64,000 nucleotides of DNA from a virus. Lineage: Duplodnaviria; Caudoviricetes. The notes under the pieces were generated by a model. The model worked only from the letters and a program-made list of their open reading frames with translations. It made no database searches and was not told the origin of the DNA. Both the position numbers and the translations under genes were made by a program. How positions within the stretch are numbered: position 1 is the first letter of the stretch; each line of letters opens with the position of its first letter. Below are positions 29,015 to 55,332 of this stretch, one piece after another. Location: positions 86,380-150,379 of the IMG/VR virus record IMGVR_UViG_3300013121_000024; one strand, 5' to 3'.

Positions 29015-31204
29015 TCAACCTGGCTCCGCTCCCGGTAATCCCGGCAAAATGTTTGGTTTGTTTGGTTTCTTCGGAATTTTAACAGGTTTGGAAGGTTGTC
29101 TATTTTTGGGTTGTTTATTTTGGTTATTATTCATAAACTCTCCAAGTGTTGGAGTTTTAACAGGTTCTTCTCTTACATGTTTAAGTTGGTTAGGATCAGC
29201 CGTGGCCGATGCTCCAATATGAGCCAGATCGCCAAGACTTCCTCCAAAGACATAAGTTCCGGTATGACTTAGCTTAATCCAGGGTAGCAACCAGATTTTC
29301 ATATTAGCTTTTTGTACATTTCTAGAGAAAAAATAATCCTCAGAAAGGTATCTCAGGCTGGCGGTCTTTTCTCCCTCTAACATGGACTTAGTTTTTTCGA
29401 TCAACTCGGGTGTAACACCATCATTGGCCACCGCTTCCATAACTCTCTTGGCGTCACCGAAGTCATATCCTCTGTCAATTGCACAGTCGAAATACATCAT
29501 AACAGGTCGACTACCATCAAACTCCTTGGTACGTACATGGTCTGGTTTGTACCACAACTCGGGAAATCTCTCTTGGTACTTCAGGAAGGTGTTTCTACGA
29601 ATCATCATAAATCCAGTTCCACCTTCAAGTATTTCCACTGGCTGGTTTAACATAATCCGGCCACCATTTCCTGTGTCTTTTGGATTGAACACGTAGTCTC
29701 CAACATACCTTTCCAATTCGTTGGGATTTTTATCCGCAAAGCCTTTAACCACCGCCGTCTTGATCTTTTCCCATGAAATACAATTAGATACCACATAATA
29801 ATTAGAAACAAAATTTGCGTTATCCTGTACTGTGATATCATATTGATCGCTTTTTGTTTTACAAAGAACAACCTTTACGGGTTTGGCGCCAATTTCTAAC
29901 TTAGGAACGTTAGACCAATCAAACTTTTCTGTACTCTGGTATTGTTCTGGAATCTTGTACAACAAATCTGTGGTTACGTATTTTCCAATAATCGAAAAAA
30001 ACTTTTCTATGGAAGATTGTCGAATCCTAATTCTTTGTCTTTTGCCGCTAATCGCTATGGTGGATTCTATTCCAAATCTTTCCAATAAGAATTTCTGAAT
30101 TTCCGGATTCTCTTCCCCAAATCCATCGGTACACATGATTACATTCCATCCATTACCATTGGATGATAATGTTCCATCATCCATGTACCACATGGCCAAA
30201 GCTTTATCGTCAATAAGATGTTTTACAGGTCCAAATTCCTTTTTTCCATTTGGATACATGAGGCCGCGCAAATATGATATTTGTGAATTTCGAGGAGAGG
30301 TAAGAAACCTGGCAAAATACTCTTTTCCTTTGTAGGATCCTACCTTTTTCTTTGGTCCTAATGAACCTCCAAACAATTGGGCCTTTAACTCTAAATAGGA
30401 TAATTGATCTTCAGAATGACCAAATACCAAATATCCCCTTTTCTTTATAGAACCATCACCCAAAAGTGTTCCGATCAGAAAGGACAATTGTTCTTTCGAG
30501 TACAGAACATTTTCGCTATTAGTAACACCTTCCACATGTCTAGGATATCTCACCACATGATCCGTGTCTAAGATATCTCCGGCGGCTTTCCAGGTAATAT
30601 TCGAAGGATCCAACACATTTTCCAGCACAGCTATATGATGATCCGCCGTTACAATATCATGCGGTTGATTTGGTGTACTTATTTTTACCCAAGGCATGCC
30701 CATGTGTCGGTGTCTTGAATGTCCTATAACCGGTTTCCATTCGAACTTTCCTTCCGGATTCATACTCAATACTTTTTTAGAATATTTGGACTCCACCAAA
30801 TCGTGTATTGTCTGCCAACCATCTTCGGTCAAAACACGATTTTTCTTATGGTGTGATTTTTTGGGATACGGAGCACAAAGAACATCATAAGGAGAATCAT
30901 CAGTTTGCAAGGCCAGCATTGCAATAACGTCCTTCGCATCGAATCCAATATCCGAGTCAATGAAAATCATATGTGTAGAATCCGACCGCATAAATTCGTC
31001 ACAAACGTATGCCCGGGCCCGGGTAATCAAGCTTTCATTAAATAGATAATATATCTGAATGGGTATCTTATGTTTTGTGGTAAGAGCTACCAGGTCGGTC
31101 ATCGACCTGGCAAACATTCCTGTGCACATTCCTCCATACATTGGTACTCCAATGAATAGTTTTTTTCTCTGTAGTTCATGCAGTGGAACTTTAATTTTGA
31201 ACAT
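29015..31204 (-). CDS. Glycosyltransferase-like (GT-A) conserved phage protein containing an intein
   Basis: PMYGG, ESLITRAR, FIDSDI (DxD), GTGFMMI, YLSEDY; interrupted after YPKK. Confidence 0.75.
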   Translation of the reverse strand: MFKIKVPLHELQRKKLFIGVPMYGGMCTGMFARSMTDLVALTTKHKIPIQIYYLFNESLITRARAYVCDEFMRSDSTHMIFIDSDIGFDAKDVIAMLALQTDDSPYDVLCAPYPKKSHHKKNRVLTEDGWQTIHDLVESKYSKKVLSMNPEGKFEWKPVIGHSRHRHMGMPWVKISTPNQPHDIVTADHHIAVLENVLDPSNITWKAAGDILDTDHVVRYPRHVEGVTNSENVLYSKEQLSFLIGTLLGDGSIKKRGYLVFGHSEDQLSYLELKAQLFGGSLGPKKKVGSYKGKEYFARFLTSPRNSQISYLRGLMYPNGKKEFGPVKHLIDDKALAMWYMDDGTLSSNGNGWNVIMCTDGFGEENPEIQKFLLERFGIESTIAISGKRQRIRIRQSSIEKFFSIIGKYVTTDLLYKIPEQYQSTEKFDWSNVPKLEIGAKPVKVVLCKTKSDQYDITVQDNANFVSNYYVVSNCISWEKIKTAVVKGFADKNPNELERYVGDYVFNPKDTGNGGRIMLNQPVEILEGGTGFMMIRRNTFLKYQERFPELWYKPDHVRTKEFDGSRPVMMYFDCAIDRGYDFGDAKRVMEAVANDGVTPELIEKTKSMLEGEKTASLRYLSEDYFFSRNVQKANMKIWLLPWIKLSHTGTYVFGGSLGDLAHIGASATADPNQLKHVREEPVKTPTLGEFMNNNQNKQPKNRQPSKPVKIPKKPNKPNILPGLPGAEPG
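29783..30856 (-). mobile_element. Intein with LAGLIDADG endonuclease (358 aa) in the GT-like gene
   Basis: Starts SHHKKNRVLTEDG, block B TADH, GTLLGDG and WYMDDG, YDITV...VVSN|C. Confidence 0.85.
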
Positions 31205-33562: not shown

Positions 33563-34073
33563 TCAATAAATCTCCAATAGTATAGTTGTGTCCTTTTTTA
33601 TTGGCTTTATTTTTTGCAAACTCCAGTGTAATTCTGGATGCATCTGAAAAAAATACTCCTCCGGATAAATGTTCATACTCATGTTGCACAACGCGGGAAG
33701 TCAATCCGAAAAAGGTTTTTAATACAACATTTCCATTGGGTTCTGTATATCTTATACTTATATCTTCTGGCCTGTTTACTTTTACAAACACACCAGGCCA
33801 AGATAAACAACCCTCCAATAAACTACCAGACTCTTCGGAAAAGTCAAGTATCTCTGGATTAAAAAATGCCAACACAGGATTGGCTTTTACAACGAAAACT
33901 TGGTATGGAAGTCCAACTTGATTTGCTGATAACCCCATTCCATTATTGGCTAGCATGGTTTCCGTAAGATTCTTAGCCAATTGAATAGGATCCTCAGGTG
34001 GATTAGAAAAATCAAATGGAATTGTAGTATTGAACAATACGGGGTCTGTGTGTTTAACTAGTTTTAGTATCAT
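33486..34073 (-). CDS. def: Peptide deformylase
   Basis: GMGLSANQVG, EGCLS, QHEYEHLSG. Confidence 0.92.
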   Translation of the reverse strand: MILKLVKHTDPVLFNTTIPFDFSNPPEDPIQLAKNLTETMLANNGMGLSANQVGLPYQVFVVKANPVLAFFNPEILDFSEESGSLLEGCLSWPGVFVKVNRPEDISIRYTEPNGNVVLKTFFGLTSRVVQHEYEHLSGGVFFSDASRITLEFAKNKANKKGHNYTIGDLLNAGKREEKVPRISGNTMETMARIQS

Positions 34074-34359
34074 CTTGCACATCATCAAATTGTTCTGTAA
34101 TTAAGTGTTTCATTTCAGCAATCCAATAATCGTCCATACGTACCATTTTGAATTCCATATCGCCTATTCCGAATTCCATGTCCTCCCTAATTTCTTTTTC
34201 TATTTCCTTAATTAGATCATCTGGAGGATCTTCCGGAAAAAGAACGCAATGTAAAACGGTACCCTCGTGATCCACCGCCATCACACCATATTCCCATGTA
34301 AGAATTTCTTTCAGTTCTTCTGTTTCCATATCATTTTCCTGTTTCATATAAGTCTCCAT
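34054..34359 (-). CDS. Acidic hypothetical protein
   Basis: 101 aa ORF in the operon. Confidence 0.55.
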   Translation of the reverse strand: METYMKQENDMETEELKEILTWEYGVMAVDHEGTVLHCVLFPEDPPDDLIKEIEKEIREDMEFGIGDMEFKMVRMDDYWIAEMKHLITEQFDDVQDDTKTS

Positions 34360-34705
34360 AAACTATCACCTCAATTGGTTTACGACATTTTCTCATTTCT
34401 TCTATTGTATTTCTGGTTCCGTTGGATTTTCCATCCCAAAAACAAATAGCAACATCGGCGTATTCGGCCATTTCTTTATTTCTTACCATTCCGGCACATT
34501 TACCTAATAGATTCCAATTGGGGTAAAACACAGTAACCGGAATATTTTTGGAGTGTCCCCAAGAGGCAGCTATGCGGTCAGGACCGCGAGCTCCTCCGGA
34601 AACAATCTCTGTTATTGGTCCATTTGACTTGTTATAATCTTCTAATTTTTCATTGATTGATGTTGAATCAACTATGGATCTGGACCCGGCCACCAACAAT
34701 TTCAT
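34331..34705 (-). CDS. SLOG-family (DUF2493/YspA-like) protein
   Basis: LLVAGSR, VSGGARGPD, AGMVRNKEMA, FWDGKSNGT. Confidence 0.85.
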   Translation of the reverse strand: MKLLVAGSRSIVDSTSINEKLEDYNKSNGPITEIVSGGARGPDRIAASWGHSKNIPVTVFYPNWNLLGKCAGMVRNKEMAEYADVAICFWDGKSNGTRNTIEEMRKCRKPIEVIVYGDLYETGK

Positions 34706-34710
34706 TTTTT

Positions 34711-34971
34711 TTATTCCTTTACATCCAAAGAAATTTTGTCGCGGACCAAAATACCTAATTTTGCCAATACTACAGCAATCGGTTCTGCCACTCCGTAAGA
34801 ATTTTTCTTGGTACGAATAAGTACAATATCCTTATTTTCATGTGGTAGATGAACATTTGTTTGAATTGCGTCTATTGTTATAATACCTTCTACCTCATCC
34901 GGATCAATATAGATCGTCTGACGTTCTTCTACTCCTTTGAATTTCACCAAAACCTTTTCTGTAGTATCCAT
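34711..34971 (-). CDS. Hypothetical protein
   Basis: 86 aa ORF. Confidence 0.55.
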   Translation of the reverse strand: MDTTEKVLVKFKGVEERQTIYIDPDEVEGIITIDAIQTNVHLPHENKDIVLIRTKKNSYGVAEPIAVVLAKLGILVRDKISLDVKE

Positions 34972-34977
34972 TATAAA

Positions 34978-35424
34978 TTATCCTCTCTTATTCTTTTTGT
35001 GCTTTTTGTGCTTTTTTGTCGATGTGTATTTCTTGGACGGACGCGCTGGACGATCCAACTCATCTATAATTCTAACAGGTGATCCTATAATGTCAACCGA
35101 AACATCAACAACTCCCGCTGCTATCATACCGATTTCTTGTGCAGCAGCCCTGGAAAGATCAATAACACGGCCTGCTACATAAGGACCTCGATCATTGATG
35201 GTAACAACCGCACTACGGCCATTTCTTTTATTTGTCACCCTAACCTTAGTACCAAACGGCAATGTCTTATGCGCGGCCGTCATCGCATTGGGGTTGAACC
35301 ATCCACCAGAGGCTACCCTTTGCGGCTGCCAATAATATGATGCCTTACCACTAGAAGCTTCAGCAGAGCCGGATAAAAATCCGATAGTGATAATGACTAA
35401 TAGTGTTGAGATATATTTGAACAA
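34978..35424 (-). CDS. rlpA: RlpA-family lytic transglycosylase-like (DPBB) exported protein
   Basis: Signal peptide, GKASYY, MTAAHKTLPFGTKVRV, INDRGPY, IDLSRAAA. Confidence 0.9.
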   Translation of the reverse strand: MFKYISTLLVIITIGFLSGSAEASSGKASYYWQPQRVASGGWFNPNAMTAAHKTLPFGTKVRVTNKRNGRSAVVTINDRGPYVAGRVIDLSRAAAQEIGMIAAGVVDVSVDIIGSPVRIIDELDRPARPSKKYTSTKKHKKHKKNKRG

Positions 35425-35453
35425 TGTTTTTCTCCTCTGTTTTATTTACAATA

Positions 35454-35855
35454 TTACATGCATATATCAGAAAACGCATGTACATTTTCTGGTAGTTTAG
35501 TTCCACTTCTATTGAATATTACAAATCCTATCCAGTTATCGAAATGTTTAGCATATTTTTGCATTGAACCACCAGTAGTCCAAACGTCGTCTACAATGAG
35601 AACCGGATCATCAACTCCTAGTTCATAATAAATCCGTTTTGTTTGTACATAACGACGGAAAACGTTGGCCACTCTTATGCCTCCTCTAGGTACGCCTATA
35701 ACTGCCGAAAAAGAAGGCAAACGTTTAACGGCAAGACTAACGATGCATTCAAGGTCGTTAATGTCTAGTGCATCGCATTCTATTTTATAGGGCAATAATA
35801 TACCGGATGCCCCTCTAAATTCACCTAATTGAAATAATGACATTTTTTTCCTCAT
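35454..35855 (-). CDS. Type I phosphoribosyltransferase (orotate PRTase-like)
   Basis: GVPRGG, VLIVDDVWTTGGSM. Confidence 0.8.
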   Translation of the reverse strand: MRKKMSLFQLGEFRGASGILLPYKIECDALDINDLECIVSLAVKRLPSFSAVIGVPRGGIRVANVFRRYVQTKRIYYELGVDDPVLIVDDVWTTGGSMQKYAKHFDNWIGFVIFNRSGTKLPENVHAFSDICM

Positions 35856-37567
35856 TCTACCATTTTTGAAAAATTTTTCACCTTGTCAAACTGAATTACA
35901 CAATCAAACTTATCTATCATTTGGTCGGATCGGTGCGACACAATGAAAACATTATTATCCAGAGTTAATGAGTCAATAATTCTCAAAAATTCCTCTGTGC
36001 CGTTAGAATCAAGACTGGAATCTAATATTTCATCAAAAATGATTAAGTTACAAGAAGCCGAATTTCTTAACTTTGATACAGCTCTCCATGTAAAAAGTAA
36101 TGACAAATCTATTCTGGTTTTTTCTCCCTCCGAGAAATTATCATAACTGAATTCGTCTCTGTGTCTAGACTTTATAACTTCAGAGAAGTTTTCATCGATC
36201 TCAAAGTTGACGAAAAAGTCCATGATGCTTAAGTATTTATTTACCATCTGGTTGATGATAGGCATATACTGCTTAATAATGGCCGTCTTAATACCTCCAT
36301 CTTTTAGTAAAACAGTTGCTAAACTGAGGATTTCTCTTTCATTTACTAGTCGTTCTTTTTTTCTAGTAAATTCTTCCAACTGTTTTTTAAAAGATTCGGA
36401 GTCTACATTTTCCTTCTCGATTGAACGGGTGGTCTTTTCCAGCTCCTTTATATCCTTTCGGTATTGTGTTATATTCAACTCGTTCAACTGTATTTCTTGG
36501 TTGTTTAGTGTAATCTTCGAATTCAATTCTGATATACGTGCCATAATCTTGGTAGCTTCTTCAATTTCACCATAAAGTACGTTATAGTGCTCATTAAGTT
36601 CGTTAATGTGCGCTCCAAGACTCATCCTCTGTAATTTCTTCTTTTCTATCACAGAGTTTTTAAATAAGTTATCTATACTCTGTTTACATGTAGGACAATT
36701 ACTATTGGTAGAATAGAAATCAATGATCAAGTCATATTTCTTGTGTTTGGCCTCCATTTGTAATCTCAACTGGTCCAGTTTTTTCAACTTACTCTCAAGT
36801 TTGTCTTTTTTACTAATGGAAGCTTGAAGGGGAGAAATTTCTTCTAACAATGATTTATTTTTGTCAATAATTTTATCAATTAGACTTAGACATTGGTTTA
36901 TTTTTTCACCACGGTCAGAGATAAGCTTATGGTTGTTCTTTTTCAGGTCATTTATGTGTTTTTTGTTCAGCTCAATTTTGCTTCTTACGATGTCTAATTG
37001 GTGTTCGACTTCCATAAGACTATCACGATTTGAGTTTATGTTATCCTTTAATAAGGAGTTCATCAAGGAGAAAACTTGAATATCCAACAAGTCTTCTATC
37101 AATTCTCTACGTTGTGCAGCGGCTAACTGCATAAATGGTGTAAAATTAGCGGAACCAAGAATAACTATTTGTACGAATGTTCTATAATTCATTTTTAAAA
37201 TGTTTTTTTCGAGAGACTGTTGGTAATCCCTGTTATCAGCGGCTTGGTTCAATAACTTACCATCACACAGTATTTCAAAAAGATTAGGTTTCATACCCCT
37301 TCGTACTGTGTATTCTTTTTTTCCAATGGAAAAATCCACTTCCACAAGGAGTCCTTTGGTGGTAATAGAATTGATTAGCTGGGGCTTATTGATATTACGG
37401 AAGGCTTTGTTGAATAGACAAAAAGTCAAAGCGTCCAGAAAGGTGGACTTTCCAGAGCCATTTTTGCCTATAATAAGTGTTTTCTTGTTTTTGTTAAGTT
37501 CTATCTCGGTAAATATATTTCCGGAAGAAAGGAAATTCTTATATCTTATTTTTTTGAAAACTACCAC
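35852..37567 (-). CDS. gp46: Recombination endonuclease ATPase subunit (gp46, Rad50/SbcC-like)
   Basis: GKNGSGKS, CPTC hook, FSEGE, IFDE. Confidence 0.96.
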   Translation of the reverse strand: MVVFKKIRYKNFLSSGNIFTEIELNKNKKTLIIGKNGSGKSTFLDALTFCLFNKAFRNINKPQLINSITTKGLLVEVDFSIGKKEYTVRRGMKPNLFEILCDGKLLNQAADNRDYQQSLEKNILKMNYRTFVQIVILGSANFTPFMQLAAAQRRELIEDLLDIQVFSLMNSLLKDNINSNRDSLMEVEHQLDIVRSKIELNKKHINDLKKNNHKLISDRGEKINQCLSLIDKIIDKNKSLLEEISPLQASISKKDKLESKLKKLDQLRLQMEAKHKKYDLIIDFYSTNSNCPTCKQSIDNLFKNSVIEKKKLQRMSLGAHINELNEHYNVLYGEIEEATKIMARISELNSKITLNNQEIQLNELNITQYRKDIKELEKTTRSIEKENVDSESFKKQLEEFTRKKERLVNEREILSLATVLLKDGGIKTAIIKQYMPIINQMVNKYLSIMDFFVNFEIDENFSEVIKSRHRDEFSYDNFSEGEKTRIDLSLLFTWRAVSKLRNSASCNLIIFDEILDSSLDSNGTEEFLRIIDSLTLDNNVFIVSHRSDQMIDKFDCVIQFDKVKNFSKMVE

Positions 37568-38619
37568 TAAATGTTGTCCCTCAATGTTAAAGCTTGATCA
37601 TATATCTTTTTCAAGAGTTTATCAAGATCATTATGTTGTTTTTTGTCCAACCCTAACATCTTTGTATAATCTGTCAGTATGGTTAAAGTATCCGAAACTT
37701 TAGGATCAAAATTAAGAATTTGTGTGTTATCCAAAAACTGATCTCCTTCAATGATACGGATATCGGCCGGATTAACTGCCTCTAATGCATCAAAAAACAA
37801 ATCAAACCAATAAGGATTATTTTTTTTACGTACAATAATTTTTACGTAAGTTCCTGAATACACAGAAAAATCTCTTTCTGTCAAATCCTCCATAGAACAG
37901 GAAGAATCGTCATATTCTATCTTATGAAATATCCTATTCGGATTTTTGATGTATGTTAATTTGCTTGTATTTGTGTCATAGATGTGAAACCCCCTGGTTT
38001 CTGCATAATCAGACCACATCATCTCATAAGGAGCACCGAGATAATGTATATTACCCTTGGAAGATTTTTGGTGAAAGTGTCCACTAGCAACCAAATCAAA
38101 CTTAGAGAACAAGTTTTTGTCAAGGCCTCGTTCTGACACATTACCACGCATCATTTCAAACCCTTTTATTTCAAGGTGTCCAAATGCTACATGACATCTA
38201 GTATTCTGTATAGCATTTATTGACTCCTGCATGTTCTCCTGATTGATCCAAGGTAGAAACAGATGATTGTTTACCTCTGTTGGACGTGTATATATGTGGA
38301 ATCCATACGGAGCTACCAATTCAGACAACGAATTTATGTAATTCGTATTTTTGTGGAATAAATCATGATTTCCCGTGAGTATATGTACTTCTTTACCAAC
38401 CAATCTATCCAGGAATCCAGATTTCATATTATTCAGTGTTTGATAATTAATGTACTTCCTTCTATCTACCAAATCACCCAAGTGGTACACAGTTTTAATT
38501 CCATGTTTTTCTATGTATGGAAAAAACACCTTGTCATAGAATTTATTGAAATATTGGAAAAATGTGTTACTATCTCCACGGACACCATAGTGTGTATCAG
38601 TTATAACACAGATTTTCAT
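37567..38619 (-). CDS. gp47: Recombination endonuclease nuclease subunit (gp47, Mre11/SbcD-like)
   Basis: DTHYG, LGDLVD, GNHD, SGHFH. Confidence 0.96.
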   Translation of the reverse strand: MKICVITDTHYGVRGDSNTFFQYFNKFYDKVFFPYIEKHGIKTVYHLGDLVDRRKYINYQTLNNMKSGFLDRLVGKEVHILTGNHDLFHKNTNYINSLSELVAPYGFHIYTRPTEVNNHLFLPWINQENMQESINAIQNTRCHVAFGHLEIKGFEMMRGNVSERGLDKNLFSKFDLVASGHFHQKSSKGNIHYLGAPYEMMWSDYAETRGFHIYDTNTSKLTYIKNPNRIFHKIEYDDSSCSMEDLTERDFSVYSGTYVKIIVRKKNNPYWFDLFFDALEAVNPADIRIIEGDQFLDNTQILNFDPKVSDTLTILTDYTKMLGLDKKQHNDLDKLLKKIYDQALTLRDNI

Positions 38620-38810
38620 CTTTTCTTTTCTATCCTATTTTTTACCAAACGATATTCTTCAAGTTCTCTGTTAATAGTTCTTGATACGAAATCCAAGTTC
38701 ATAGAATAAGTTTCTTTGGTTTGGAAATCCACACTTGGATCCTTTAATTTTCCTAACCAATCTTTGATGATGGCAGGTAGAATAACATTTTTTTCACTCA
38801 AACTCATTAC
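38616..38810 (-). CDS. Small hypothetical protein
   Basis: MSLSEKNV start after GGAG; ATGA-coupled to gp47. Confidence 0.55.
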   Translation of the reverse strand, partial: VMSLSEKNVILPAIIKDWLGKLKDPSVDFQTKETYSMNLDFVSRTINRELEEYRLVKNRIEKKR

Positions 38811-39237
38811 ACACTCCAAATTGAATATCAAATAACCTGTTGCTTGGTGTTCTCGTTTCCTGTACATAAATTTGTGATTTCAATATACACTGATCGATCA
38901 TTTGTGGTGTGTTGTTAAAACGATCACACACAATACTGTACTGGTATATTTTTCCATTATAAAAGAATTCTCTCAATAGATTATCAAACTCATATCTCAC
39001 TTTGGCGTATGTGATATCATTTATAGGTTCTAACAATATTTCTTGATTTATTTTTAGACTTCTATCTTCAATGATCTTGCTAAGCCAGTCCTCGGCTTCT
39101 ACAACCGGTAACATAGGAGGTGGCACAGGAATAACACTAGCAGCCTTTGCTGGAGTAGGAACTATTGAAGGCAATACTATGGCGGCACCAGCACCTATTA
39201 ATATTTTAAAAAAATCACGCTTGGTGACAATAAACAT
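38794..39237 (-). CDS. Tat-like signal peptide fused to a tail-sheath C-terminal-like domain
   Basis: TKRDFFK, hydrophobic core, AKA; C-half aligns by eye to the gp18 C-terminus (IVCDRFNNT vs VVCDKTNNP). Confidence 0.65.
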   Translation of the reverse strand: MFIVTKRDFFKILIGAGAAIVLPSIVPTPAKAASVIPVPPPMLPVVEAEDWLSKIIEDRSLKINQEILLEPINDITYAKVRYEFDNLLREFFYNGKIYQYSIVCDRFNNTPQMIDQCILKSQIYVQETRTPSNRLFDIQFGVCNEFE

Positions 39238-39244
39238 AACAAAA

Positions 39245-39781
39245 TTACTCCTTGTCGTCTATGAATATTTCCAGTGAAACTTTAGTATTTTTCTTATGCC
39301 TTGTCAAGTCCTTTTTGTTTTGATTGGGAATTTTATCATTGTAAATTTCCATTTTATTCGGAGTAATTGATGTTCCAGAATTGGTCAAATTCTCCAACAT
39401 ACCATATCTAACACCATTGGCCACCTTTATGTCTTGTTGTTCCTTTTCCAGTGAAATTCTTCTGAAAAATGAATTTTTGGCATATTGTGTGAAATAAGCG
39501 AATGGATTATTGGTTTTACTTCCGTCAAAATTATCGATATATTTAACCATATTTAACACGGCATCCGAAATCATTTCCTCTTTCCAACTATATGCCGAAA
39601 AATTAGGTTTATTGGAAAATCCTGTTGCTATTTTGAGAAAACATTCTCCAATATATCGGGGAATTACAGGTTTCGGAAGTCCTAATTTTTCAGCATTTCG
39701 CAATTGTGATTTGTACTCCATCAATACCTCATACATATGTTTATTGTTAAGGTAATTTCTGGTATTTTTTTTAGTTATCAA
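39245..39781 (-). CDS. gp55: Late-transcription sigma factor (gp55)
   Basis: YLNNK, YIGECFLKIA, PNFSAYSWKEEMISD, NPFAYFTQ. Confidence 0.95.
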   Translation of the reverse strand: MITKKNTRNYLNNKHMYEVLMEYKSQLRNAEKLGLPKPVIPRYIGECFLKIATGFSNKPNFSAYSWKEEMISDAVLNMVKYIDNFDGSKTNNPFAYFTQYAKNSFFRRISLEKEQQDIKVANGVRYGMLENLTNSGTSITPNKMEIYNDKIPNQNKKDLTRHKKNTKVSLEIFIDDKE

Positions 39782-39804
39782 GTCACTTATCCTCTCATTT
39801 GTGT

Positions 39805-39869
39805 AATTTTACCCCTTGCCAACATTTTGGAAAGCTGTATAATAACGGTGTCGTTTTAGAGTAATTGGT
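39805..39869 (+). repeat. 65-bp element, copy 2 (inverted relative to 3981-4045), upstream of gp55
   Basis: Exact reverse complement of 3981-4045. Confidence 0.9.
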
Positions 39870-39877
39870 TATTATAG

Positions 39878-40351
39878 TTAGTTTGGACGATTTTTGACGA
39901 ACCTACCTGGAACCATGAAAGAACCTTCCGATGGTCCTCTTAGTACAATAGGTTTTAGTTCCGATATCAAATCCTGTTTTTCTTTCTCTTCCTTAATCTT
40001 CTTTGCTATTAACTGCCTTTCCTCAAAGGTATCATTAGTAGCTTTAAGCCCATCCAAAATATTCTTATCCACCAAATTCAATGATATAGTAGAATTATTA
40101 TAAAACCTTTCCACCTCCATGTGTACCTTATTATGTGTAAGCACATGGTTTTTTTGTATGGTGATTTCAGAATTTTCCATAAATGGTGTATATTTTTGTA
40201 GAGTCATCATTCCGTCGTGCATTACTATGGCTCGTGGATCCGAAAATGTAAACCCGTTTTTGGTTTCATTAGAAAGTTTGGCCAACAGTTCATCACCATT
40301 AATTAACCTGATGTGGTATACATTCTCTTTAACGGTATTATTTGCTTCCAT
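39878..40351 (-). CDS. Conserved hypothetical protein downstream of uvsW (possible Sm-like fold)
   Basis: IRLINGDELLAK...P..I pattern. Confidence 0.6.
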   Translation of the reverse strand: MEANNTVKENVYHIRLINGDELLAKLSNETKNGFTFSDPRAIVMHDGMMTLQKYTPFMENSEITIQKNHVLTHNKVHMEVERFYNNSTISLNLVDKNILDGLKATNDTFEERQLIAKKIKEEKEKQDLISELKPIVLRGPSEGSFMVPGRFVKNRPN

Positions 40352-42875
40352 CTTTTGGTTTTTCTCCTAACTTTACATTGTATATCTTATAAGGAAACTT
40401 CTCAGAATCATAAATTCTAATTCTCTCAAGGAAGTGTGTTAGTGTGTAATTTCTTCTGTTTTTCCAAGATATATCATCGGCAACGTCAAACAGAGTCAAT
40501 TTTGTTTTCCACGGGGTTCTACGGAATCCTCTTCCTATTGATTGCAATATTTTGATTCTGGCTTTGGTGGGTGTTGCAAAAATAATGTAATTTATGTTCT
40601 TTATATTTATACCAGTCGTAAACACATCGCTGGCTAATAGGATAGCATTCTTTTCCTTATCAAAATCAATACGTGTTTTATTTTTCTCTTTTCCGGTGTT
40701 TTCTCCAGTAACAAAGTAAAGATTTCTATCAGATGCTTTAAGACTAAGTATATCATGTATTGATTCACCTTGATCAATATACCGAAAAAGTATTAATACA
40801 TTTCCTTCCAATGAAAGTGCTAGATTTGCTAAGAAATTATTTCTTTTATTGTGTTGTCGGATAAAATCTATTTCCTGATCATAAGTAGCCCTTTTCATCA
40901 GCCTTTTTATTTCATCCGGATACTTTAATAGTATGGTTTTTATACTTATATCTGCACTGTGACCCTTATCAATCAACTCTCTATTAGTGGTTACGGTTAC
41001 AATTGGGCCGAATAATCCTTCAATTACTAGTTTATCCGTTTTGGTGTCTTGTATTGTGCCTGTAAGACCTATTCTGAATTTTATTCTAGTACTTTTTTCC
41101 ATGATTCCTCGTAAACACTCCGCTTTTGCGGTGTGCACTTCATCCACCGTTATCATATTAAATTGATTCAACCAGTCTTCTGGCATTTTGTAAATGGATT
41201 GCCATGTACTAATTGTTACTTGTTTGTCTATTTCTTTGGACTGGCCTTCATAGATAAGTTGTATGTTGTTTTTTTGAAATCCATATGTTTCTTCAAATTC
41301 TGCCTGTAATTGTAAACACAACGCGGTTGATGGTACCACTATAAGTGTTTTTGTATCATAATACCTTAAAAGCAGGTACATAATGAGTGATTTGCCGGAG
41401 TTGTGGGTTATCATACCATCATTTGTGATATAGAGATTATCCTCTACCTCAAACCCGAAAAATTCTTGTTCATCTAATGGTTTCACTATGAATTTGGAAA
41501 TATACCTACGTCTCTTTAAATCTTCCGATTCAAGTACGGTATTTTGTTTTCTTTTCACCCTTGTTGGTATGATGTGTGTATTTCCATTGATAATAACATT
41601 GTAATAGGTTTTATTGTATCGCTTATTGTATTTTTCTTTAATATATGCTATTAGGCCTAGTGAAATGGCTAATTGGTGTACTCCTTGTGCTAAATATTTT
41701 GATTTTGAACTAAATGAAAATATGGTTTTTGATTTGGAGTCTTTATGTCCATCAGAATCAATAAGTCCAGCCAAAAGTTCTTTTCTTGTTTCCAGGTTAG
41801 ATTCCAATAAGGTCTTAGGAATGAATTTGTCTTCACATTTGGTCCTTATACCATTGTTAATGAAGTGTAATCCTAATTTATCAAATTCGGATAATATTAT
41901 ATTTCGCTTATTTTTAGCGCCTTTTATGAAATAGCTTATTCCACTTTTCCGAATTGTACAACCAAATTTCTGTGATTCATTTTCGATACATTGTATTATC
42001 TCTTCATCTTTGGTTGTAACAGCACATGTATGTGTGTGTCCATCACCTAAATAAAGTCCAATAAAATATGGAGAAAGTAAAGTTTTCGGGGGGTTTCCAT
42101 ATTCTAAAGGAATATCATTATAGAATAACACAGAACAGTGTTTGAATGTATTGGATTTTTTTAGATAATCCTCTACTGTAATTTTTGTTATTCTGTCTTT
42201 GTCTCTTTTTGAATACCCATAACGAGAATTGATATCAGTATGTTTCAGTGTTAGTATGTGGTTTCCTGTAACGGTTATTTTGGATAAACCCTTTTTTGGA
42301 ATTATTTCGTAAAGATTATCTTTTCCTTTGAATACTTTAAGTACCTCTTTTTCTTTTCCATCGGCACCAAAGATTTTATTTGATACCTTTATAGATTCAA
42401 TTGGTTTCCAACCTTCTTTAGTGAAAACTTTATCACCTCTTTTATGACAGTTGGTAGGAGAAAGTAGTACCAATCTACCTTTGCGAACCGCATGTGTAAA
42501 TGCCTCTAATTGATAATCGCGAACTTTTATGTCATCTGGTAGGTCTAGAGATTTGATAAATTCCTCCGCTTCAATAACAGAGAATTCTGCATCCGAATTA
42601 TCATCCAAAAATTCAATATTATATTGACGATGTTTGCCATATTCTTTGAGTTTATCAGATAATCCCGCATACATTGTATTGTTACGCAAATTTATCATTC
42701 GTATTTTACCGTCCCACATTCCTCTACGGAAAGCAGGAGAAAATCTGGCACCTGGCACATTGAACGTAAAGGAATCAGATAACTCCTGTAACATACCCTG
42801 TGTGGCGTGTACCTTGAAGTAAGATTCGTTTAACTTTTTAAATTGCAATGTTGTACTTGTTCTGTTATGTTCCAT
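40338..42875 (-). CDS. uvsW: UvsW SF2 helicase containing an intein
   Basis: WDGKI, RDYQ, SPTN|SGKS, DEVH, GLTGT, QSIGRGFR. Confidence 0.95.
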   Translation of the reverse strand: MEHNRTSTTLQFKKLNESYFKVHATQGMLQELSDSFTFNVPGARFSPAFRRGMWDGKIRMINLRNNTMYAGLSDKLKEYGKHRQYNIEFLDDNSDAEFSVIEAEEFIKSLDLPDDIKVRDYQLEAFTHAVRKGRLVLLSPTNCHKRGDKVFTKEGWKPIESIKVSNKIFGADGKEKEVLKVFKGKDNLYEIIPKKGLSKITVTGNHILTLKHTDINSRYGYSKRDKDRITKITVEDYLKKSNTFKHCSVLFYNDIPLEYGNPPKTLLSPYFIGLYLGDGHTHTCAVTTKDEEIIQCIENESQKFGCTIRKSGISYFIKGAKNKRNIILSEFDKLGLHFINNGIRTKCEDKFIPKTLLESNLETRKELLAGLIDSDGHKDSKSKTIFSFSSKSKYLAQGVHQLAISLGLIAYIKEKYNKRYNKTYYNVIINGNTHIIPTRVKRKQNTVLESEDLKRRRYISKFIVKPLDEQEFFGFEVEDNLYITNDGMITHNSGKSLIMYLLLRYYDTKTLIVVPSTALCLQLQAEFEETYGFQKNNIQLIYEGQSKEIDKQVTISTWQSIYKMPEDWLNQFNMITVDEVHTAKAECLRGIMEKSTRIKFRIGLTGTIQDTKTDKLVIEGLFGPIVTVTTNRELIDKGHSADISIKTILLKYPDEIKRLMKRATYDQEIDFIRQHNKRNNFLANLALSLEGNVLILFRYIDQGESIHDILSLKASDRNLYFVTGENTGKEKNKTRIDFDKEKNAILLASDVFTTGINIKNINYIIFATPTKARIKILQSIGRGFRRTPWKTKLTLFDVADDISWKNRRNYTLTHFLERIRIYDSEKFPYKIYNVKLGEKPKDGSK
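41400..42449 (-). mobile_element. Intein with LAGLIDADG endonuclease (350 aa) in the UvsW Walker A motif
   Basis: CHKRGD, TGNH, IGLYLGDG, LAGLIDSDG, ITHN|S. Confidence 0.93.
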
Positions 42876-43311
42876 TTGTGAATTTCATAAACTCTATAGC
42901 ATTTTTAATCTGAAAGGTTCGGTTGCTTATGGTTCGGATAATACTTTCAAGTGCATTGATTTTTTCCATCTGGTAAGATATTCTTAGGCTCGATTGTATG
43001 AGTTCCTGGTCAGCTTCCATATACATATCCGCCTCACTTTTCAATATCTTTCCTACAGCAGGAAATTTCCAACCAAGAGCAACCGTTTCTTTTGTAGGAC
43101 CTTGTGTGTAAAATTCCCATTTTTCAAATTTCAATTTTTCATGTTCAGATTTCATTTTTTTGAGTAACAGTGCTTCATTTGAAAATATTTTATAGTATTT
43201 GTGGTGTAATTCCGGTATTCGAAGTGATTCCAATGCTAATTCCGACTTATCAATCTTGGAATCTTCCTTCCAGTTATCTAATATTTCTTCTAATTTCATC
43301 TGGACATCCAT
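42865..43311 (-). CDS. uvsY: Recombination mediator UvsY
   Basis: WKEDSKID, IPELHHKY, RTFQIKNAIEFMKF. Confidence 0.92.
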   Translation of the reverse strand: MDVQMKLEEILDNWKEDSKIDKSELALESLRIPELHHKYYKIFSNEALLLKKMKSEHEKLKFEKWEFYTQGPTKETVALGWKFPAVGKILKSEADMYMEADQELIQSSLRISYQMEKINALESIIRTISNRTFQIKNAIEFMKFTNGT

Positions 43312-43340
43312 TATCAGCATTTGTTGAAATTGTTAGAGTT

Positions 43341-43368
43341 AGTATAACAGGTTCCTATGTTATGTCAA
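43341..43368 (-). promoter_or_regulatory. Sigma70-like promoter for uvsY-uvsW (TTGACA-16-TATACT, extended TG)
   Basis: Consensus match. Confidence 0.7.
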
Positions 43369-43377
43369 GATTTATTT

Positions 43378-43908
43378 TTATACATTGTAATCTATATCGT
43401 ACAGCGTGTAAACAAATGTTGCTGTGGATTTGATATTTGTAACATCTGTAAGATTTGAATCAAAATCCAATGGTCCCAGTTTAATGGGGAATGCATCCGA
43501 GAAAGTGACCGTGGCTAGTGGATTCTTTGCAGAATTGAGTATGACACAAGATATATCAGACTTTACTCCATAACCACTAAGGTTGGTCTGAGATGCTAGG
43601 GTATTGTATTGTTCTGTATTTTCGGGGAACGCAAGTTGTCTCATCCATGTCTGTATTTCATACCAATTTCTTAGTTCTTCATCGACCATGAACGTGATAT
43701 TGAGAGGTTCAAAATTGAGTTCGTCTCCTGGAATTGGTATCTTATTCAGTGGTGTTGTTCGGACAGTAGGTGTGGTACTTATGCTTGGTATGTTGATTTT
43801 CTGCACAAAAAAGTCTACACCAGGACATCGTTTTATTGCTACCTTATAATTGAGTGGAGAAAGGAAGTTCCTATTGCTTGGATAGTTAGTTAAAGCTGAT
43901 GTTGTCAT
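43378..43908 (-). CDS. gp3: Tail completion/sheath stabiliser (gp3)
   Basis: NFLSP, ITFMVDEELRNWYEIQTWM, FSDAFP; start at MTTS. Confidence 0.88.
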   Translation of the reverse strand: MTTSALTNYPSNRNFLSPLNYKVAIKRCPGVDFFVQKINIPSISTTPTVRTTPLNKIPIPGDELNFEPLNITFMVDEELRNWYEIQTWMRQLAFPENTEQYNTLASQTNLSGYGVKSDISCVILNSAKNPLATVTFSDAFPIKLGPLDFDSNLTDVTNIKSTATFVYTLYDIDYNV

Positions 43909-43931
43909 ATTTGGTCCTTGGTGCTTTAATG

Positions 43932-43962
43932 TTGACTTTTGTATATTGGTGTGGTATTTATA
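43932..43962. promoter_or_regulatory. Overlapping divergent promoters: TTGACT-17-TATTTA (+) and late TATAAATA (-)
   Basis: The same bases 43955-43960 serve as the -10 on + and the late box on -. Confidence 0.5.
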
Positions 43963-43987
43963 TAGATTAGAGGTTAGAGGTGGAAAG

Positions 43988-45385
43988 ATGTCACTTACAC
44001 GCACAGAATTGGAGGAATTATTTCCGGCACACAAGGTGTTTCCGGCATTGGTAGAGTATTGTAGACTACAGAAATTGACAGACAAGGAAAAACTTCCAAA
44101 GTGTAAATGTGGAAAACTATGCACTCCAAATACCGAAAATCAGGCCAAAGGTTTTACACAGTATTGCTCTGTTCCATGTAGACTAAAATATGGTAAACGG
44201 ACTACTGCACATGATAAACTGGAAAACAGGGAATGGTTATATGAACAAAGGGTTACACTCAGGAAGTCAAAAGACCTCATTGCATCGGAGTTAGGGTGTT
44301 CACACATTCTTGTGAATAAGTGGATCAAGAAACATGGAATACCGAGCTTTAGATTACAAGAATCACCAACGACCATAAGGAACAAATTAACGGATAAAGT
44401 TGGTTTAGAGGAGATGTATACTGATAAAACCATGGAACAAATAGCTGGAGAACTTGGGACCACCAAATCCACGGTGTCTATATGGTTCCAAAAGCATGGT
44501 ATTACACCCAAGGCCGACAATTCTTGGCCACGTCAATTCACTAAGACTTCTGTGATACACCAGGAGATACTCGATTACTTAGGTACAATATATGGTGGAA
44601 CTATTCTGAGTAATGATAGGTCGACTCTTGGAACTGAATTGGATATTCTAATTCTAGACAAAAAATTAGCAATAGAAGTCGATGGACTATACTACCACAC
44701 AGACAAATTCAAACCACGGGGTTTGCATTTAGAAAAAACGAACAGGTGCACTGATGGTGGACTGCGTTTGTTCCATATTTTTGAAGACCAGTGGATTTAC
44801 CACCGACCAATCGTGGAAAGCATGATATCATATGCTCTAGGTGTTGTAACGATTCGTATACCAGCGAGAAAATGTGTGATATCAATGGTTTCTCCGGCCG
44901 TCCGCAGGAAATTTTTCGAAGACAATCACTTACAAGGTGATGTTGGAGCTAAAATTGCTTATGGATTGTATCAGGATGGAGAACTCGTGGCCTGTATGAG
45001 TTTCCGAAAGCCCCGATTCAACCAGAAATATGATTTGGAATTGATACGTTTCGCAAATAAAATAGGAACCACGGTTAGTGGTGGGTTTTCCAGATTGGTA
45101 TCAAAGGTATCAGGAAAATCAATCATCACATATGCTGATCGCACATATTCGGATGCCGGTGTGTATTTGAAATGTGGATTTGAACAGTTGGTCGTAAATC
45201 CTCCATCTTATTGGTACACAGATAATAAACACAGGTATCCAAGAACTATGTTCTCTAAAAAGCAATTATCGAATAAACTAGGGAATTGGAATTTGGAGGG
45301 ATTATCCGAACGCGAGATAACAGAGAAACTTGGTCTCAGGCGAATATGGAATTGTGGCACAGTCACGTTGGTAAAACAGACATAA
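43988..45385 (+). CDS. Hef-like (Vsr/EDxHD-type) homing endonuclease with N-terminal Zn and HTH modules
   Basis: CKCG...YCSVPC, two HTHs, ELDI...AIEVDGLYYH, HIFEDQW, ELIRFA, TYADR; the only convincing + strand gene. Confidence 0.8.
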   Translation: MSLTRTELEELFPAHKVFPALVEYCRLQKLTDKEKLPKCKCGKLCTPNTENQAKGFTQYCSVPCRLKYGKRTTAHDKLENREWLYEQRVTLRKSKDLIASELGCSHILVNKWIKKHGIPSFRLQESPTTIRNKLTDKVGLEEMYTDKTMEQIAGELGTTKSTVSIWFQKHGITPKADNSWPRQFTKTSVIHQEILDYLGTIYGGTILSNDRSTLGTELDILILDKKLAIEVDGLYYHTDKFKPRGLHLEKTNRCTDGGLRLFHIFEDQWIYHRPIVESMISYALGVVTIRIPARKCVISMVSPAVRRKFFEDNHLQGDVGAKIAYGLYQDGELVACMSFRKPRFNQKYDLELIRFANKIGTTVSGGFSRLVSKVSGKSIITYADRTYSDAGVYLKCGFEQLVVNPPSYWYTDNKHRYPRTMFSKKQLSNKLGNWNLEGLSEREITEKLGLRRIWNCGTVTLVKQT

Positions 45386-45424: not shown

Positions 45425-46159
45425 CTAGATTCGCAATCTAGCTTCCCATCTTAGTCGGTTGGATTCTCCGATCTTTCTTTTATGTTCTTCCGTCATGGTT
45501 CTTCGTGGTTTTCGACGGTTTGCTTCGCCTATATTCTTGCGATGCTCTTCGGTGAATGGCTTTTTAGGTTTACCTTTTAGCGCAACACTTACTTTGTATT
45601 TATGTTTTTCTGAAAGTTGACGGCCTTTTGTGTGACCTATTCTGCCGACCAAAGCTTGTCCTATTTTTTCTCGGTGTTCTTTGGTAAGGGCTTTACCCGC
45701 TTTAGCTTGTCCCAACCTTCTTCGGTGTTCTTCGGTAAATATACGACCTTTATTTTTCTCACTTATTTTTCGTTTTGCTTCTTCTGTTTTAGGTCCATGT
45801 TTTTTTCCCGTATTGGCCTTGGAAATTTTTTGGCCTATAGTAAGCAATTTATCTGGATCGGAAGTCCAGTGAGAAAAGTGGTGGTTTCGTAGGTTATAGT
45901 ATCGAACACGCAATTCTTCCTGTTTTATCATTGAAAGCCATTTGTGTTCGGCGTCATGAAGTTCCAGTTTGTTAGAATATACCTTTTGAATTGTACGTCT
46001 CTTGAAATCTTGGGGACGGTGTTTATATCCTTGTTTCATCCATCTGGAACTACAAATATATCCGTCACACTCGTTACCCCAGTGGCATCCCACATAATAC
46101 CTTTTGTGTTTCCGGTCATACCATAAGTAAACGAATCCATAATTTATTGTATTTTCCAT
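45425..46159 (-). CDS. GIY-YIG (Seg-like) homing endonuclease with NUMOD3-type repeats
   Basis: YGFVY...YYVGCH, YYNL, repeated TEEHRKxIG. Confidence 0.88.
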   Translation of the reverse strand: MENTINYGFVYLWYDRKHKRYYVGCHWGNECDGYICSSRWMKQGYKHRPQDFKRRTIQKVYSNKLELHDAEHKWLSMIKQEELRVRYYNLRNHHFSHWTSDPDKLLTIGQKISKANTGKKHGPKTEEAKRKISEKNKGRIFTEEHRRRLGQAKAGKALTKEHREKIGQALVGRIGHTKGRQLSEKHKYKVSVALKGKPKKPFTEEHRKNIGEANRRKPRRTMTEEHKRKIGESNRLRWEARLRI

Positions 46160-53989: not shown

Positions 53990-54574
53990 TTACTGGAAGT
54001 CAGCAGGAACACCAGAGGTGTTACCATCTGTTGGTAACCAGTAATCATAAGAGAATTTCACGTTGTATTCTTCAATCCTATCATTTTGTCCCCAGTCTAC
54101 ACCGATTGCATCGACGTCCATTGGCCATAGTCCGGAGAAAAAGTACGATCTAATTATTTTTCCTTCAACGGGTCCGGCCTTTGAATATTGATTTACAATG
54201 GCAGAACCTTTGATATTAATGGCTTCCGAATTTGTTCCTTCTTCCATCACGTTTGGAATTACACTATTTACTGTGGCGTGCCAACGTTCAAAGAATTTTC
54301 TTAATGTAAAGTCCTCATCATTAAGAATGCTTACGGCCCAAGCTCCATATGTTCTATCGCCTGGATACCGTATTTTACGACCAAAGTATGGTACTTCTAC
54401 CACTCCTATGGATGATTCTGGTAATGAAGCAGCTTTAATAAGGAATGAATGCTTGTCATTGAAATTAGAATCAGCCAATCCAGCAGGAGGGCTAAGAATA
54501 ACCTCAAATAGTGTAGGCCTTGCACCCATGAAATTCAAGCCTTTGGCTGCAAAAGTATTAAGGTCAAGTGGCAT
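53990..54574 (-). CDS. gp19: Tail tube protein (gp19)
   Basis: GARPTLFEV, PYFGRKI..GDRT, NDEDF, FSYDYW. Confidence 0.95.
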   Translation of the reverse strand: MPLDLNTFAAKGLNFMGARPTLFEVILSPPAGLADSNFNDKHSFLIKAASLPESSIGVVEVPYFGRKIRYPGDRTYGAWAVSILNDEDFTLRKFFERWHATVNSVIPNVMEEGTNSEAINIKGSAIVNQYSKAGPVEGKIIRSYFFSGLWPMDVDAIGVDWGQNDRIEEYNVKFSYDYWLPTDGNTSGVPADFQ

Positions 54575-54612: not shown

Positions 54613-54620
54613 TATTTATA
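54613..54620 (-). promoter_or_regulatory. Late promoter TATAAATA
   Basis: Upstream of gp19, overlapping the endonuclease stop. Confidence 0.65.
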
Positions 54621-55332
54621 TCGCTGATATTTCTACCGTGTATTTAGTTTTACGTGTACCAAGTTTGGCTTGCCTCATTTTCTCTTTTGATTCTTCCGAG
54701 TGCTTCCGACCGGTCATTCCTGCACCAATTCTCAAACCTTCCTTGTGTTGACGTTTCATATTTTCAGATAACTTTCTTCTGTGTTCCTGGCTTCTATTTT
54801 TTGCGGCACTGGACATCCTGGCCAAAAAGATTGGATCTGAATAGTCTCGGTGTGTGTTAGCGATCCTTTTTTGTATTTGTTCCGGTGACTGTTTATGTCC
54901 TAATTTTGCATGTCTCATTTTCTCTTTTGATTCTTCCGAGTGTGTTTTACCTTGCCAGTAAGCTTCATTTTCCTCATAGTATGTTTTTAGTTTGGTACGA
55001 ATTTTTTCTCCAATAGTACCGGATTTAGATTTATCGGCCGTCCAGTGGCCGAAATGGTGGTTATGTAGGTTATAATATCGTGTTCTGAGTTCTTCCGGTT
55101 TTATCATTGAAAGCCAACGATATTCGGCTTCTAATAAATCAGTTTTAGAGGTATATATTTTCTCGACAATTCTCCTTTTGAAATCTACCGGTCGTCGTTT
55201 AAATGCATGTTTCATGTTGGTAGAAGAACACACATAACCGTCATCCTCTCGTCCCCAGTGGCATCCTACATAATACCTTTTGTGTTTACGGTCATACCAC
55301 AAGTAAACGAATCCATATTCCTCTGTTATCAT
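54616..55332 (-). CDS. GIY-YIG (Seg-like) homing endonuclease, paralog of 45425-46159
   Basis: Identical YGFVYLWYDRKHKRYYVGCHWG; HSEESKEKMR repeats. Confidence 0.88.
   Translation of the reverse strand: MITEEYGFVYLWYDRKHKRYYVGCHWGREDDGYVCSSTNMKHAFKRRPVDFKRRIVEKIYTSKTDLLEAEYRWLSMIKPEELRTRYYNLHNHHFGHWTADKSKSGTIGEKIRTKLKTYYEENEAYWQGKTHSEESKEKMRHAKLGHKQSPEQIQKRIANTHRDYSDPIFLARMSSAAKNRSQEHRRKLSENMKRQHKEGLRIGAGMTGRKHSEESKEKMRQAKLGTRKTKYTVEISAI

Follow-up and report, generated by a model that had tools for sequence, protein, structure and literature searches.

A small tail-sheath-core protein with a predicted Tat-type export signal, encoded among the replication genes of a T4-like phage

We report a family of small proteins, previously undescribed and found in uncultured T4-like phages, in which the inner core of the contractile tail sheath is preceded by what appears to be a twin-arginine (Tat) export signal. 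In P0001, the member from which this work started, a Tat-type signal, a linker and a sheath core follow one another, and the sequence makes it highly probable that the protein has this architecture and is exported. P0001 is encoded in the window analysed here, a stretch of 64,000 nt covering positions 86,380 to 150,379 of IMG/VR record IMGVR_UViG_3300013121_000024, a virus contig of 150,379 bp with an estimated completeness of 83%. The source virus is a T4-like myovirus from activated sludge; the capsid proteins of Stenotrophomonas phage DLP_6, Methylophilales phage Melnitz and Pelagibacter phage Mosig share 62-68% identity with its own. Literature searches on tail sheaths in combination with the twin-arginine signal, and on PF17482, returned no description of such a design, in agreement with the original prediction, made from the sequence alone, which knew of no described example.

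The mini-sheath gene and its locus

P0001 is a real gene, as indicated by its ribosome-binding site, its unchanged carriage and the existence of a syntenic relative with 40% identity. Its start lies 7 nt beyond the stop of the late sigma factor gene gp55, and the AAGGAG box, which falls within the final gp55 codons, is 10 nt from the ATG. Downstream, the stop of P0001 overlaps the start of the small orf63 by 14 nt, and gp47 and gp46 follow (Table 1). The same DNA is present in activated-sludge metagenomes from at least eight studies dated 2019-2025, with the P0001 gene unchanged, and the gene is identical in four other metagenome contigs; as these copies from four other runs are 100% identical at the DNA level, they are uninformative on selection. 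The sequencing runs found to contain this DNA include no listed RNA run. The GC content around P0001 (0.32-0.36) is the same as that of the adjoining genes. The 120-130 kb portion of the record (window positions ~33600..43600), which runs from gp46 to UvsW and includes the mini-sheath gene, has the lowest GC content of the genome, 0.344 versus 0.38-0.43. The T4 late-promoter motif TATAAATA is absent upstream of P0001, and a scan for sigma-70 promoters and terminators gave the same counts as shuffled sequence. From the position of the gene we infer early or middle expression.

Table 1 Coordinates of the features discussed, in window numbering unless another record is named
Feature	Coordinates	Strand	Basis
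Mini-sheath gene P0001, 147 aa, stop included	38794..39237	-	ORF list and translation
Predicted Tat-type signal peptide, residues 1-32	39142..39237	-	sequence and family alignment
Twin-arginine motif T5-K6-R7-D8-F9-F10-K11	39205..39225	-	
Pro-rich linker, residues 33-49	39091..39141	-	family alignment; lower pLDDT in model
Sheath inner-domain core, residues 50-147	38797..39090	-	AF2 model, structure and sequence matches
AAGGAG ribosome-binding site	39248..39253	-	sequence reading
gp55 late sigma factor, directly upstream	39245..39781	-	phrog_234, E 4.5e-49
orf63, downstream of P0001	38616..38807	-	no family match
gp47, SbcD-like nuclease subunit, downstream	37567..38619	-	phrog_100, E 1e-92
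Complete tail sheath gp18 of this phage, 760 aa	55423..57705	-	phrog_23, E 4e-107
gp19, true tail tube	53990..54574		
Second tail-tube-fold gene, beside UvsY	43378..44124	-	phrog_45, E 2e-32
gp25 of this phage	14900-15166 of the source record		PF04965
UvsW helicase, 845 aa	40338..42875	-	
Free-standing homing-endonuclease gene	54616..55332	-	phrog_314
Second homing-endonuclease gene	45425..46159	-	phrog_314
ORF of 729 aa, function unknown	29015..31204	-	phrog_1574 in two stretches
ORF of 148 aa	34978..35424	-	DPBB_1 (RlpA-like, 'lipoprotein precursor')
AGS80897.1 of Caulobacter phage Cr30	KF301602.1 6733..7059		

The placing of the gene between gp55 and gp47, far from the tail genes, as given in the original prediction, is correct with respect to gp18, which is 16 kb away (P0001 lies 15-16 kb from gp18 and gp19). 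The remoteness from tail genes is not complete, as a gp3-like paralogue of the tube is found only ~4 kb from P0001; this second tail-tube-fold gene is probably the gp3-like tube terminator. The C-terminal domain of the phage's own gp18 is intact (PF17482, 57.9 bits), and its own gp25 is the sole PF04965 match in the whole record.

Several other genes of the window were noted in passing. UvsW contains an intein-like insert with LAGLIDADG-type motifs, and the syntenic UvsW of a related phage (L086) matches Pfam Hom_end_hint, Hom_end and LAGLIDADG_3. One free-standing homing-endonuclease gene is located between gp18 and gp19 and a second adjoins the major capsid gene, while the 729-aa ORF, which includes a LAGLIDADG homing-endonuclease segment, is probably a further intein-bearing gene. 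At a distance of 3.4 kb from the mini-sheath gene, the product of the DPBB_1 ORF begins with a hydrophobic stretch of Sec type and ends in a Lys-rich tail; the ORF is kept in the related phage L086, and its sequence suggests that the product is likely to be a second exported phage protein.

Export signal, linker and sheath core

The N-terminus of P0001 reads as a Tat-type signal, in which the twin-arginine motif is followed by a hydrophobic core (residues 12-29) with an uncharged run of 19 residues and a mean Kyte-Doolittle hydropathy of 1.79. The residues A30-K31-A32 and A33 come after this run, and the likely signal-peptidase site, judged from the sequence, is A-K-A, with the cut after A32. 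By itself P0001 scores 12.7 bits (E 0.13) against Pfam TAT_signal and so stays below the gathering score of 22.7, and a search of NCBIfam with P0001 gave no match. In the family alignment the twin-arginine column reads RR in 30 of the 32 signal-bearing members and KR in the remaining two (P0001 and P0034); the RR members have the canonical S/T/N-R-R-x-F-[FL]-K motif, and all 32 possess an uncharged hydrophobic run and then AxA-like sites. Pfam TAT_signal matches six of 34 members at E<0.01. The linker is variable in both length and sequence between family members. The reading of a Tat-like signal of the KR variant joined to a Pro-rich linker, as originally made from this one protein, is in keeping with its sequence (T-K-R-D-F-F-K to A-K-A, then A), which alone is a sub-threshold signal, and draws its support at the level of the family from relatives that mostly carry RR. 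Natural KR Tat signals exist, for instance that of Salmonella TtrB. Bacterial Tat substrates (S/T-R-R-x-F-L-K) resemble the family as a whole in the n-region motif, the moderately hydrophobic h-region and the AxA c-region; P0001 differs from them in having K-R for R-R, and no cofactor or partner requiring Tat was identified for it. A lipoprotein reading was considered and rejected, since the LIGC sequence of P0003 is too near the RR motif and is unconserved. P0001 is the sole protein with a Tat-like N-terminus among the ORFs of its genome, and to our knowledge few phage-encoded Tat substrates have been described. In Sinorhizobium phage phiM12 (KF381361.1 192907..193038), an open frame of 238 aa is hit by the family profile over the Tat signal only (E 0.0016) and, going by this match, is possibly another phage-encoded Tat substrate.

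The remainder of P0001 is equivalent to a part of domain IV of T4 gp18 (domain I in pyocin numbering). Its two long helices span residues 51-66 and 74-93, its three-stranded sheet is formed by residues 99-103, 118-126 and 134-141, and the motif IVCDxxNNTPxxID is kept. P0001 matches the tail-sheath family PHROG_23 (E 5.4e-6), PHROG_10581 (E 1.5e-5) and, among PDB sequences, residues 572-634 of T4 gp18 (E 9e-5). Its match to the phage's own gp18 spans residues 674-736 with 24% identity (E 2e-4), the same alignment to the gp18 C-terminus that had been drawn by eye. P0001 is nearer to T4-type sheaths found in other phages than to the gp18 encoded by the same genome, which indicates that it is no recent local duplicate. 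P0001 alone falls short of Pfam Phage_sheath_1C (PF17482) and does not match PF04984, while Phage_sheath_1C matches 24 of 34 relatives with a best E of 1.4e-11. An AF2 model built with the family alignment has a mean pLDDT of 86.5, rising to ~97 over residues 50-145; the alignment was needed, as the model from the single P0001 sequence was unusable (pLDDT 41). With VIA-align the model fits best to the C-terminal domains of sheaths, both from phages and from contractile injection systems (Z 9-10, rmsd 1.5-2.9 A), and the top Foldseek matches are sheaths as well, so that the match to a sheath C-terminal domain foreseen in the original prediction is recovered both in structure and, with PHROG_23, in profile.

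Tail sheaths (T4 gp18; PF04984 and PF17482) are homologous to P0001 over residues ~50-145 and have the same fold, and their motif LFExND..TR ... VVCDxxNNTPxxID is retained in the small proteins. In contrast to sheaths of 600-800 aa that are encoded beside the tube gene, P0001 has 147 aa, lacks the outer domains, bears an export signal and is encoded amid replication genes; its N-terminus consists of signal and linker in place of the N-terminal exchange arm, and it ends six residues past the last strand, without most of the C-terminal arm. Sheath domain I comprises two long helices and a three-stranded sheet and makes the sole contact with the tube, through the attachment helix alpha10, whose basic residues are not conserved even between sheaths (PMC6088184). 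The attachment helix is the second long helix, and the sheet takes the N- and C-terminal arms of neighbouring subunits (PMC6088184, PMC3004832). In T4, domain IV consists of the N-terminal 24 residues and residues 510-659 and lines the sheath interior, and the crystallised gp18 deletion mutants, including gp18M (residues 1-510), had no polymerisation properties (PMC3004832). The gp25/TssE proteins and IraD (PF04965) are likewise stand-alone small proteins with the same handshake-domain fold, to which the P0001 model aligns with Z 8.4 (T4 gp25) and 7.0 (the gp25-like IraD); IraD, an anti-adaptor, is an example of this fold put to use outside tails. Unlike gp25 and IraD, which are cytoplasmic and signal-less, P0001 has a predicted signal, has no GPW_gp25 match and is encoded outside the baseplate cluster, and the family profile matches sheaths at E 1e-26 to 1e-32 and gp25 at 2e-3. 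A gp25 paralogue was considered and rejected; P0001 gives no PF04965 match and is alike in fold only.

Distribution and evolution of the family

All of 1.84 billion cluster representatives were scanned with HMMER, which gave 37 hits. In ~30 of these, proteins 104-190 aa long, the alignment extends over signal, linker and domain (residues ~5 to ~130). The scan contributed 31 of the 32 signal-bearing members, the other being P0039, the only addition from a profile word-index search; a word-index protein search with P0001 and a pattern scan of IMG/VR returned the query itself or nothing. C104 and N109 are invariant in the family alignment, and conservation reaches at least 90% at R7 and N108. Of 36 family members, 32 have a complete Tat signal together with an AxA site. 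The signal-less members are P0019, P0020 and P0022, which are metagenomic and nest inside the family tree, and AGS80897.1 of Caulobacter phage Cr30. The possibility raised beforehand, that P0001 is a lone decaying ORF, did not hold, as ~30 diverged clusters keep the frame, the signal, the linker and the domain. ESM Atlas and BFVD contain further small viral proteins with only the sheath C-terminal part, labelled hypothetical or fragments. P0028, a metagenomic protein of 238 aa, has an unrelated N-terminus of 130 aa and a complete sheath domain-IV C-terminus with the exchange arm, and in the tree it clusters with true sheaths, apart from the mini family.

Searches of cultured phages returned the sheath gene almost exclusively. 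With tblastn, P0001 matched 43 of 50,697 phage records, only in sheath genes and at no more than 38% identity; P0039 and P0009 matched 1,368 and 841 records, again in one place each, the sheath gene, and P0013 gave 42 second matches beyond one place per record. A search with the family profile in ten cultured phages (Melnitz, Mosig, DLP_6, phiM12, DSL-LC03, RHph_N34, Vibrio 2.275.O, Cr30, Paraglaciecola GD1 and Aeh1) found no signal-bearing member. There were two non-sheath exceptions: a weak match to gp25 of DLP_6, and AGS80897.1, a signal-less hypothetical protein of 108 aa in the early region of Cr30, which has the motif VVCDESNNT.

The original prediction proposed a search for the same architecture next to gp55 in other phages, and the nearest homologue (P0003, 40% identity) is indeed found in a related phage at the equivalent position, just after gp55. 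The order there is UvsY, UvsW with an intein, a small ORF, gp55, the mini-sheath, an orf63 homologue (43% identity to orf63), gp47 and gp46. Beyond this one syntenic phage no relatives of orf63 were found elsewhere, and orf63 was rejected as a family-wide partner, being found beside the P0003 homologue only; it is a possible candidate for a lineage-specific partner, and a complex prediction of the mini-sheath with orf63 scored 0.00, which gives no verdict. Other members are found in different surroundings: the gp41 helicase directly precedes P0024; on a 247-kb contig, P0009 is flanked by a UvsW-like helicase and gp41; nrdA is near both P0039 and P0021; P0007 adjoins endonuclease VII and YAcAr genes; and P0004 is inside a sugar-modification gene cluster. 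The examined members are thus in T4-like replication and nucleotide-metabolism settings or other accessory settings, and none is beside tail-sheath or tube genes. Of the 73 IMG/VR relatives in which gp55 and gp47 both occur, 58 have them side by side, 14 have unrelated inserts between them, and none has the mini-sheath; these statistics indicate that the gap is a hot spot for accessory genes and that the mini-sheath is patchily distributed.

In a tree that included the signal columns, which bias it toward one clade, the small proteins formed a single clade (98/98) separate from true sheaths. A quick tree from the domain columns only had the small proteins scattered, with no single clade; when they were forced into one clade, the best tree of these columns exceeded the quick tree by 22.4 in log-likelihood (AU p 0.85). 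A single origin of the small proteins from a sheath gene is compatible with these results, though not proven by them. The terminal branches of the small proteins are about four-fold longer than those of sheaths (median 1.12 versus 0.28). The column comparison shows that F-E-x-N-D-x-x-T-R, L88, I97 and V-x-C-D-x-x-N-N-T-x-x-x-x-D are kept, and that two regions have lost sheath-specific conservation: the first helix (R-I-N-V-R-R-L-F) and the last strand with the arm (I-N-x-I-x-L-x-F-x-A ... F). The lost regions, together with the missing N-terminal arm, are expected to be the parts that knit sheath subunits to one another. The loss of conservation at subunit contacts and the absence of the N-terminal arm argue against a polymerisation cap and for a new function of the core. 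Of the original view, in which a sheath polymerisation domain had been repurposed as an envelope-located protein, the repurposed and exported sheath domain is sustained by an architecture seen family-wide in signal, homology and setting. The candidate roles put forward with it were a decoy or cap acting on contractile machines or an effect on host sensors, of which a polymerisation cap is made less likely by the lost contact residues and by the expectation that a periplasmic protein would not meet the sheath of an incoming phage.

Proposed function and its alternatives

We propose a mechanism in which P0001 would be folded in the cytoplasm, exported by the Tat system of the host, the presence of which is assumed, and released into the periplasm early in infection. 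There, the sheath-derived surface would bind a contractile-tail component arriving in the periplasm of the already infected cell, most likely the tail tube. The tube is favoured as the target because domain I is the part of the sheath that touches the tube, and because only the tube, the spike and the tape-measure protein of an incoming phage, and not its sheath, reach the periplasm; tube binding is thus suggested by analogy with sheaths. Binding would block or sense the secondary infection, and would constitute superinfection exclusion by structural mimicry. Taken as a whole, from export through to exclusion, this is the best explanation that we can offer, and we hold it with somewhat less than even confidence. 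The exclusion step considered separately, that is, periplasmic binding of an incoming contractile-tail part leading to superinfection exclusion, is argued by analogy and is tentative. Equally tentative is the idea that the tube-facing core of the sheath may have become a secreted periplasmic clamp, which would seize the naked tube or another tail part of a phage, tailocin or T6SS and block injection. The four signal-less relatives suggest that the domain can also work in the cytoplasm.

The proposed mechanism has counterparts in T4, where Imm and Sp are small envelope proteins that act on incoming tail components, Sp by inhibiting the gp5 lysozyme. Imm and Sp differ from P0001 in that they have no relation to it in sequence or fold, are membrane-anchored or Sec-type and not Tat-type, and are not derived from the virion. 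Imm was recently reported to bind the tape-measure protein and thereby to exclude superinfection (bioRxiv 10.64898/2026.03.06.709160), which provides a precedent for the logic of exclusion through the binding of a tail part.

The same architecture and periplasmic placing would also suit a guard against other contractile weapons, in which the core would bind Hcp tubes in T6SS attacks or tailocin tubes in R-type bacteriocin attacks, or shield the infected cell in some other way, so that it survives until lysis. Activated sludge is a dense and competitive habitat, and the tube proteins of phages, tailocins and T6SS have one common fold; however, the sequence likeness is specifically to T4-type gp18, and the family is seen in T4-like phages only and has no tie to T6SS or tailocin loci, which leaves such a guard improbable. 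We also give a low probability to a part in sensing or regulating lysis or the envelope programme of the phage itself, in which the protein would detect secondary adsorption from the periplasm and influence lysis timing, as T4 RI does in lysis inhibition, or would bind a host envelope protein. T-even lysis inhibition relies on periplasmic sensing of superinfection, and a gene outside the tail module with a small, fast-evolving and export-like product would be in keeping with such a sensor, but no holin or antiholin neighbour was identified, the neighbourhoods vary between members and homology to RI is absent.

Tat substrates fold in the cytoplasm first, and P0001 may act there, where it would chaperone the assembly of sheath or tube or interfere with it, perhaps as a dominant-negative directed at co-infecting phages, and the Tat signal would only remove or tether it. 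Signal-less members that nest in the family, including that of the cultured phage Cr30, and a fold that is the sheath/gp25 handshake domain speak for this; the Tat signal with AxA kept in 32 of 36 members would be costly if irrelevant, the sheath-specific residues of the polymerisation regions are lost and the gene is outside the late tail module, and for these reasons we regard a cytoplasmic activity as unlikely. Far less likely still is that P0001 is what remains of a duplicated sheath gene now in decay, or a spare part of the virion, for instance a sheath initiator resembling gp25, and has no exported function of its own. Although only the last ~95 sheath residues are matched, the fold is common to gp25 and the profile weakly matches gp25 of DLP_6, the frame, signal, linker and domain are conserved over ~30 diverged clusters and in the syntenic homologue, the gene has its own ribosome-binding site, and a Tat signal is incompatible with virion assembly in the cytoplasm. 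A split or decaying gp18 fragment was rejected on account of the family conservation, and P0001 is not a spare structural part, since the phage's own gp18 and gp25 are intact elsewhere in the genome.

Whatever its function, the family provides a clean case of neofunctionalisation, in which the core of the fold was kept while the polymerisation surfaces were freed from constraint and the branches became about four times as long. We found no description of a virion structural domain that was detached, tagged for export and retained by dozens of lineages as an accessory gene, and AGS80897.1 of Cr30 offers an experimentally tractable relative. Should tube binding by the exported core prove true, it would represent a new mechanism of phage-phage competition, or of protection from tailocins or T6SS, and the core would be a natural compact binder for contractile-tail parts. 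The exclusion proposed here, if true, would be an addition to the very short list of understood superinfection-exclusion mechanisms of T4-like phages. If the core does act as a periplasmic clamp, it would define a new class of exclusion or immunity that mimics a virion component and is spread over uncultured T4-like phages.
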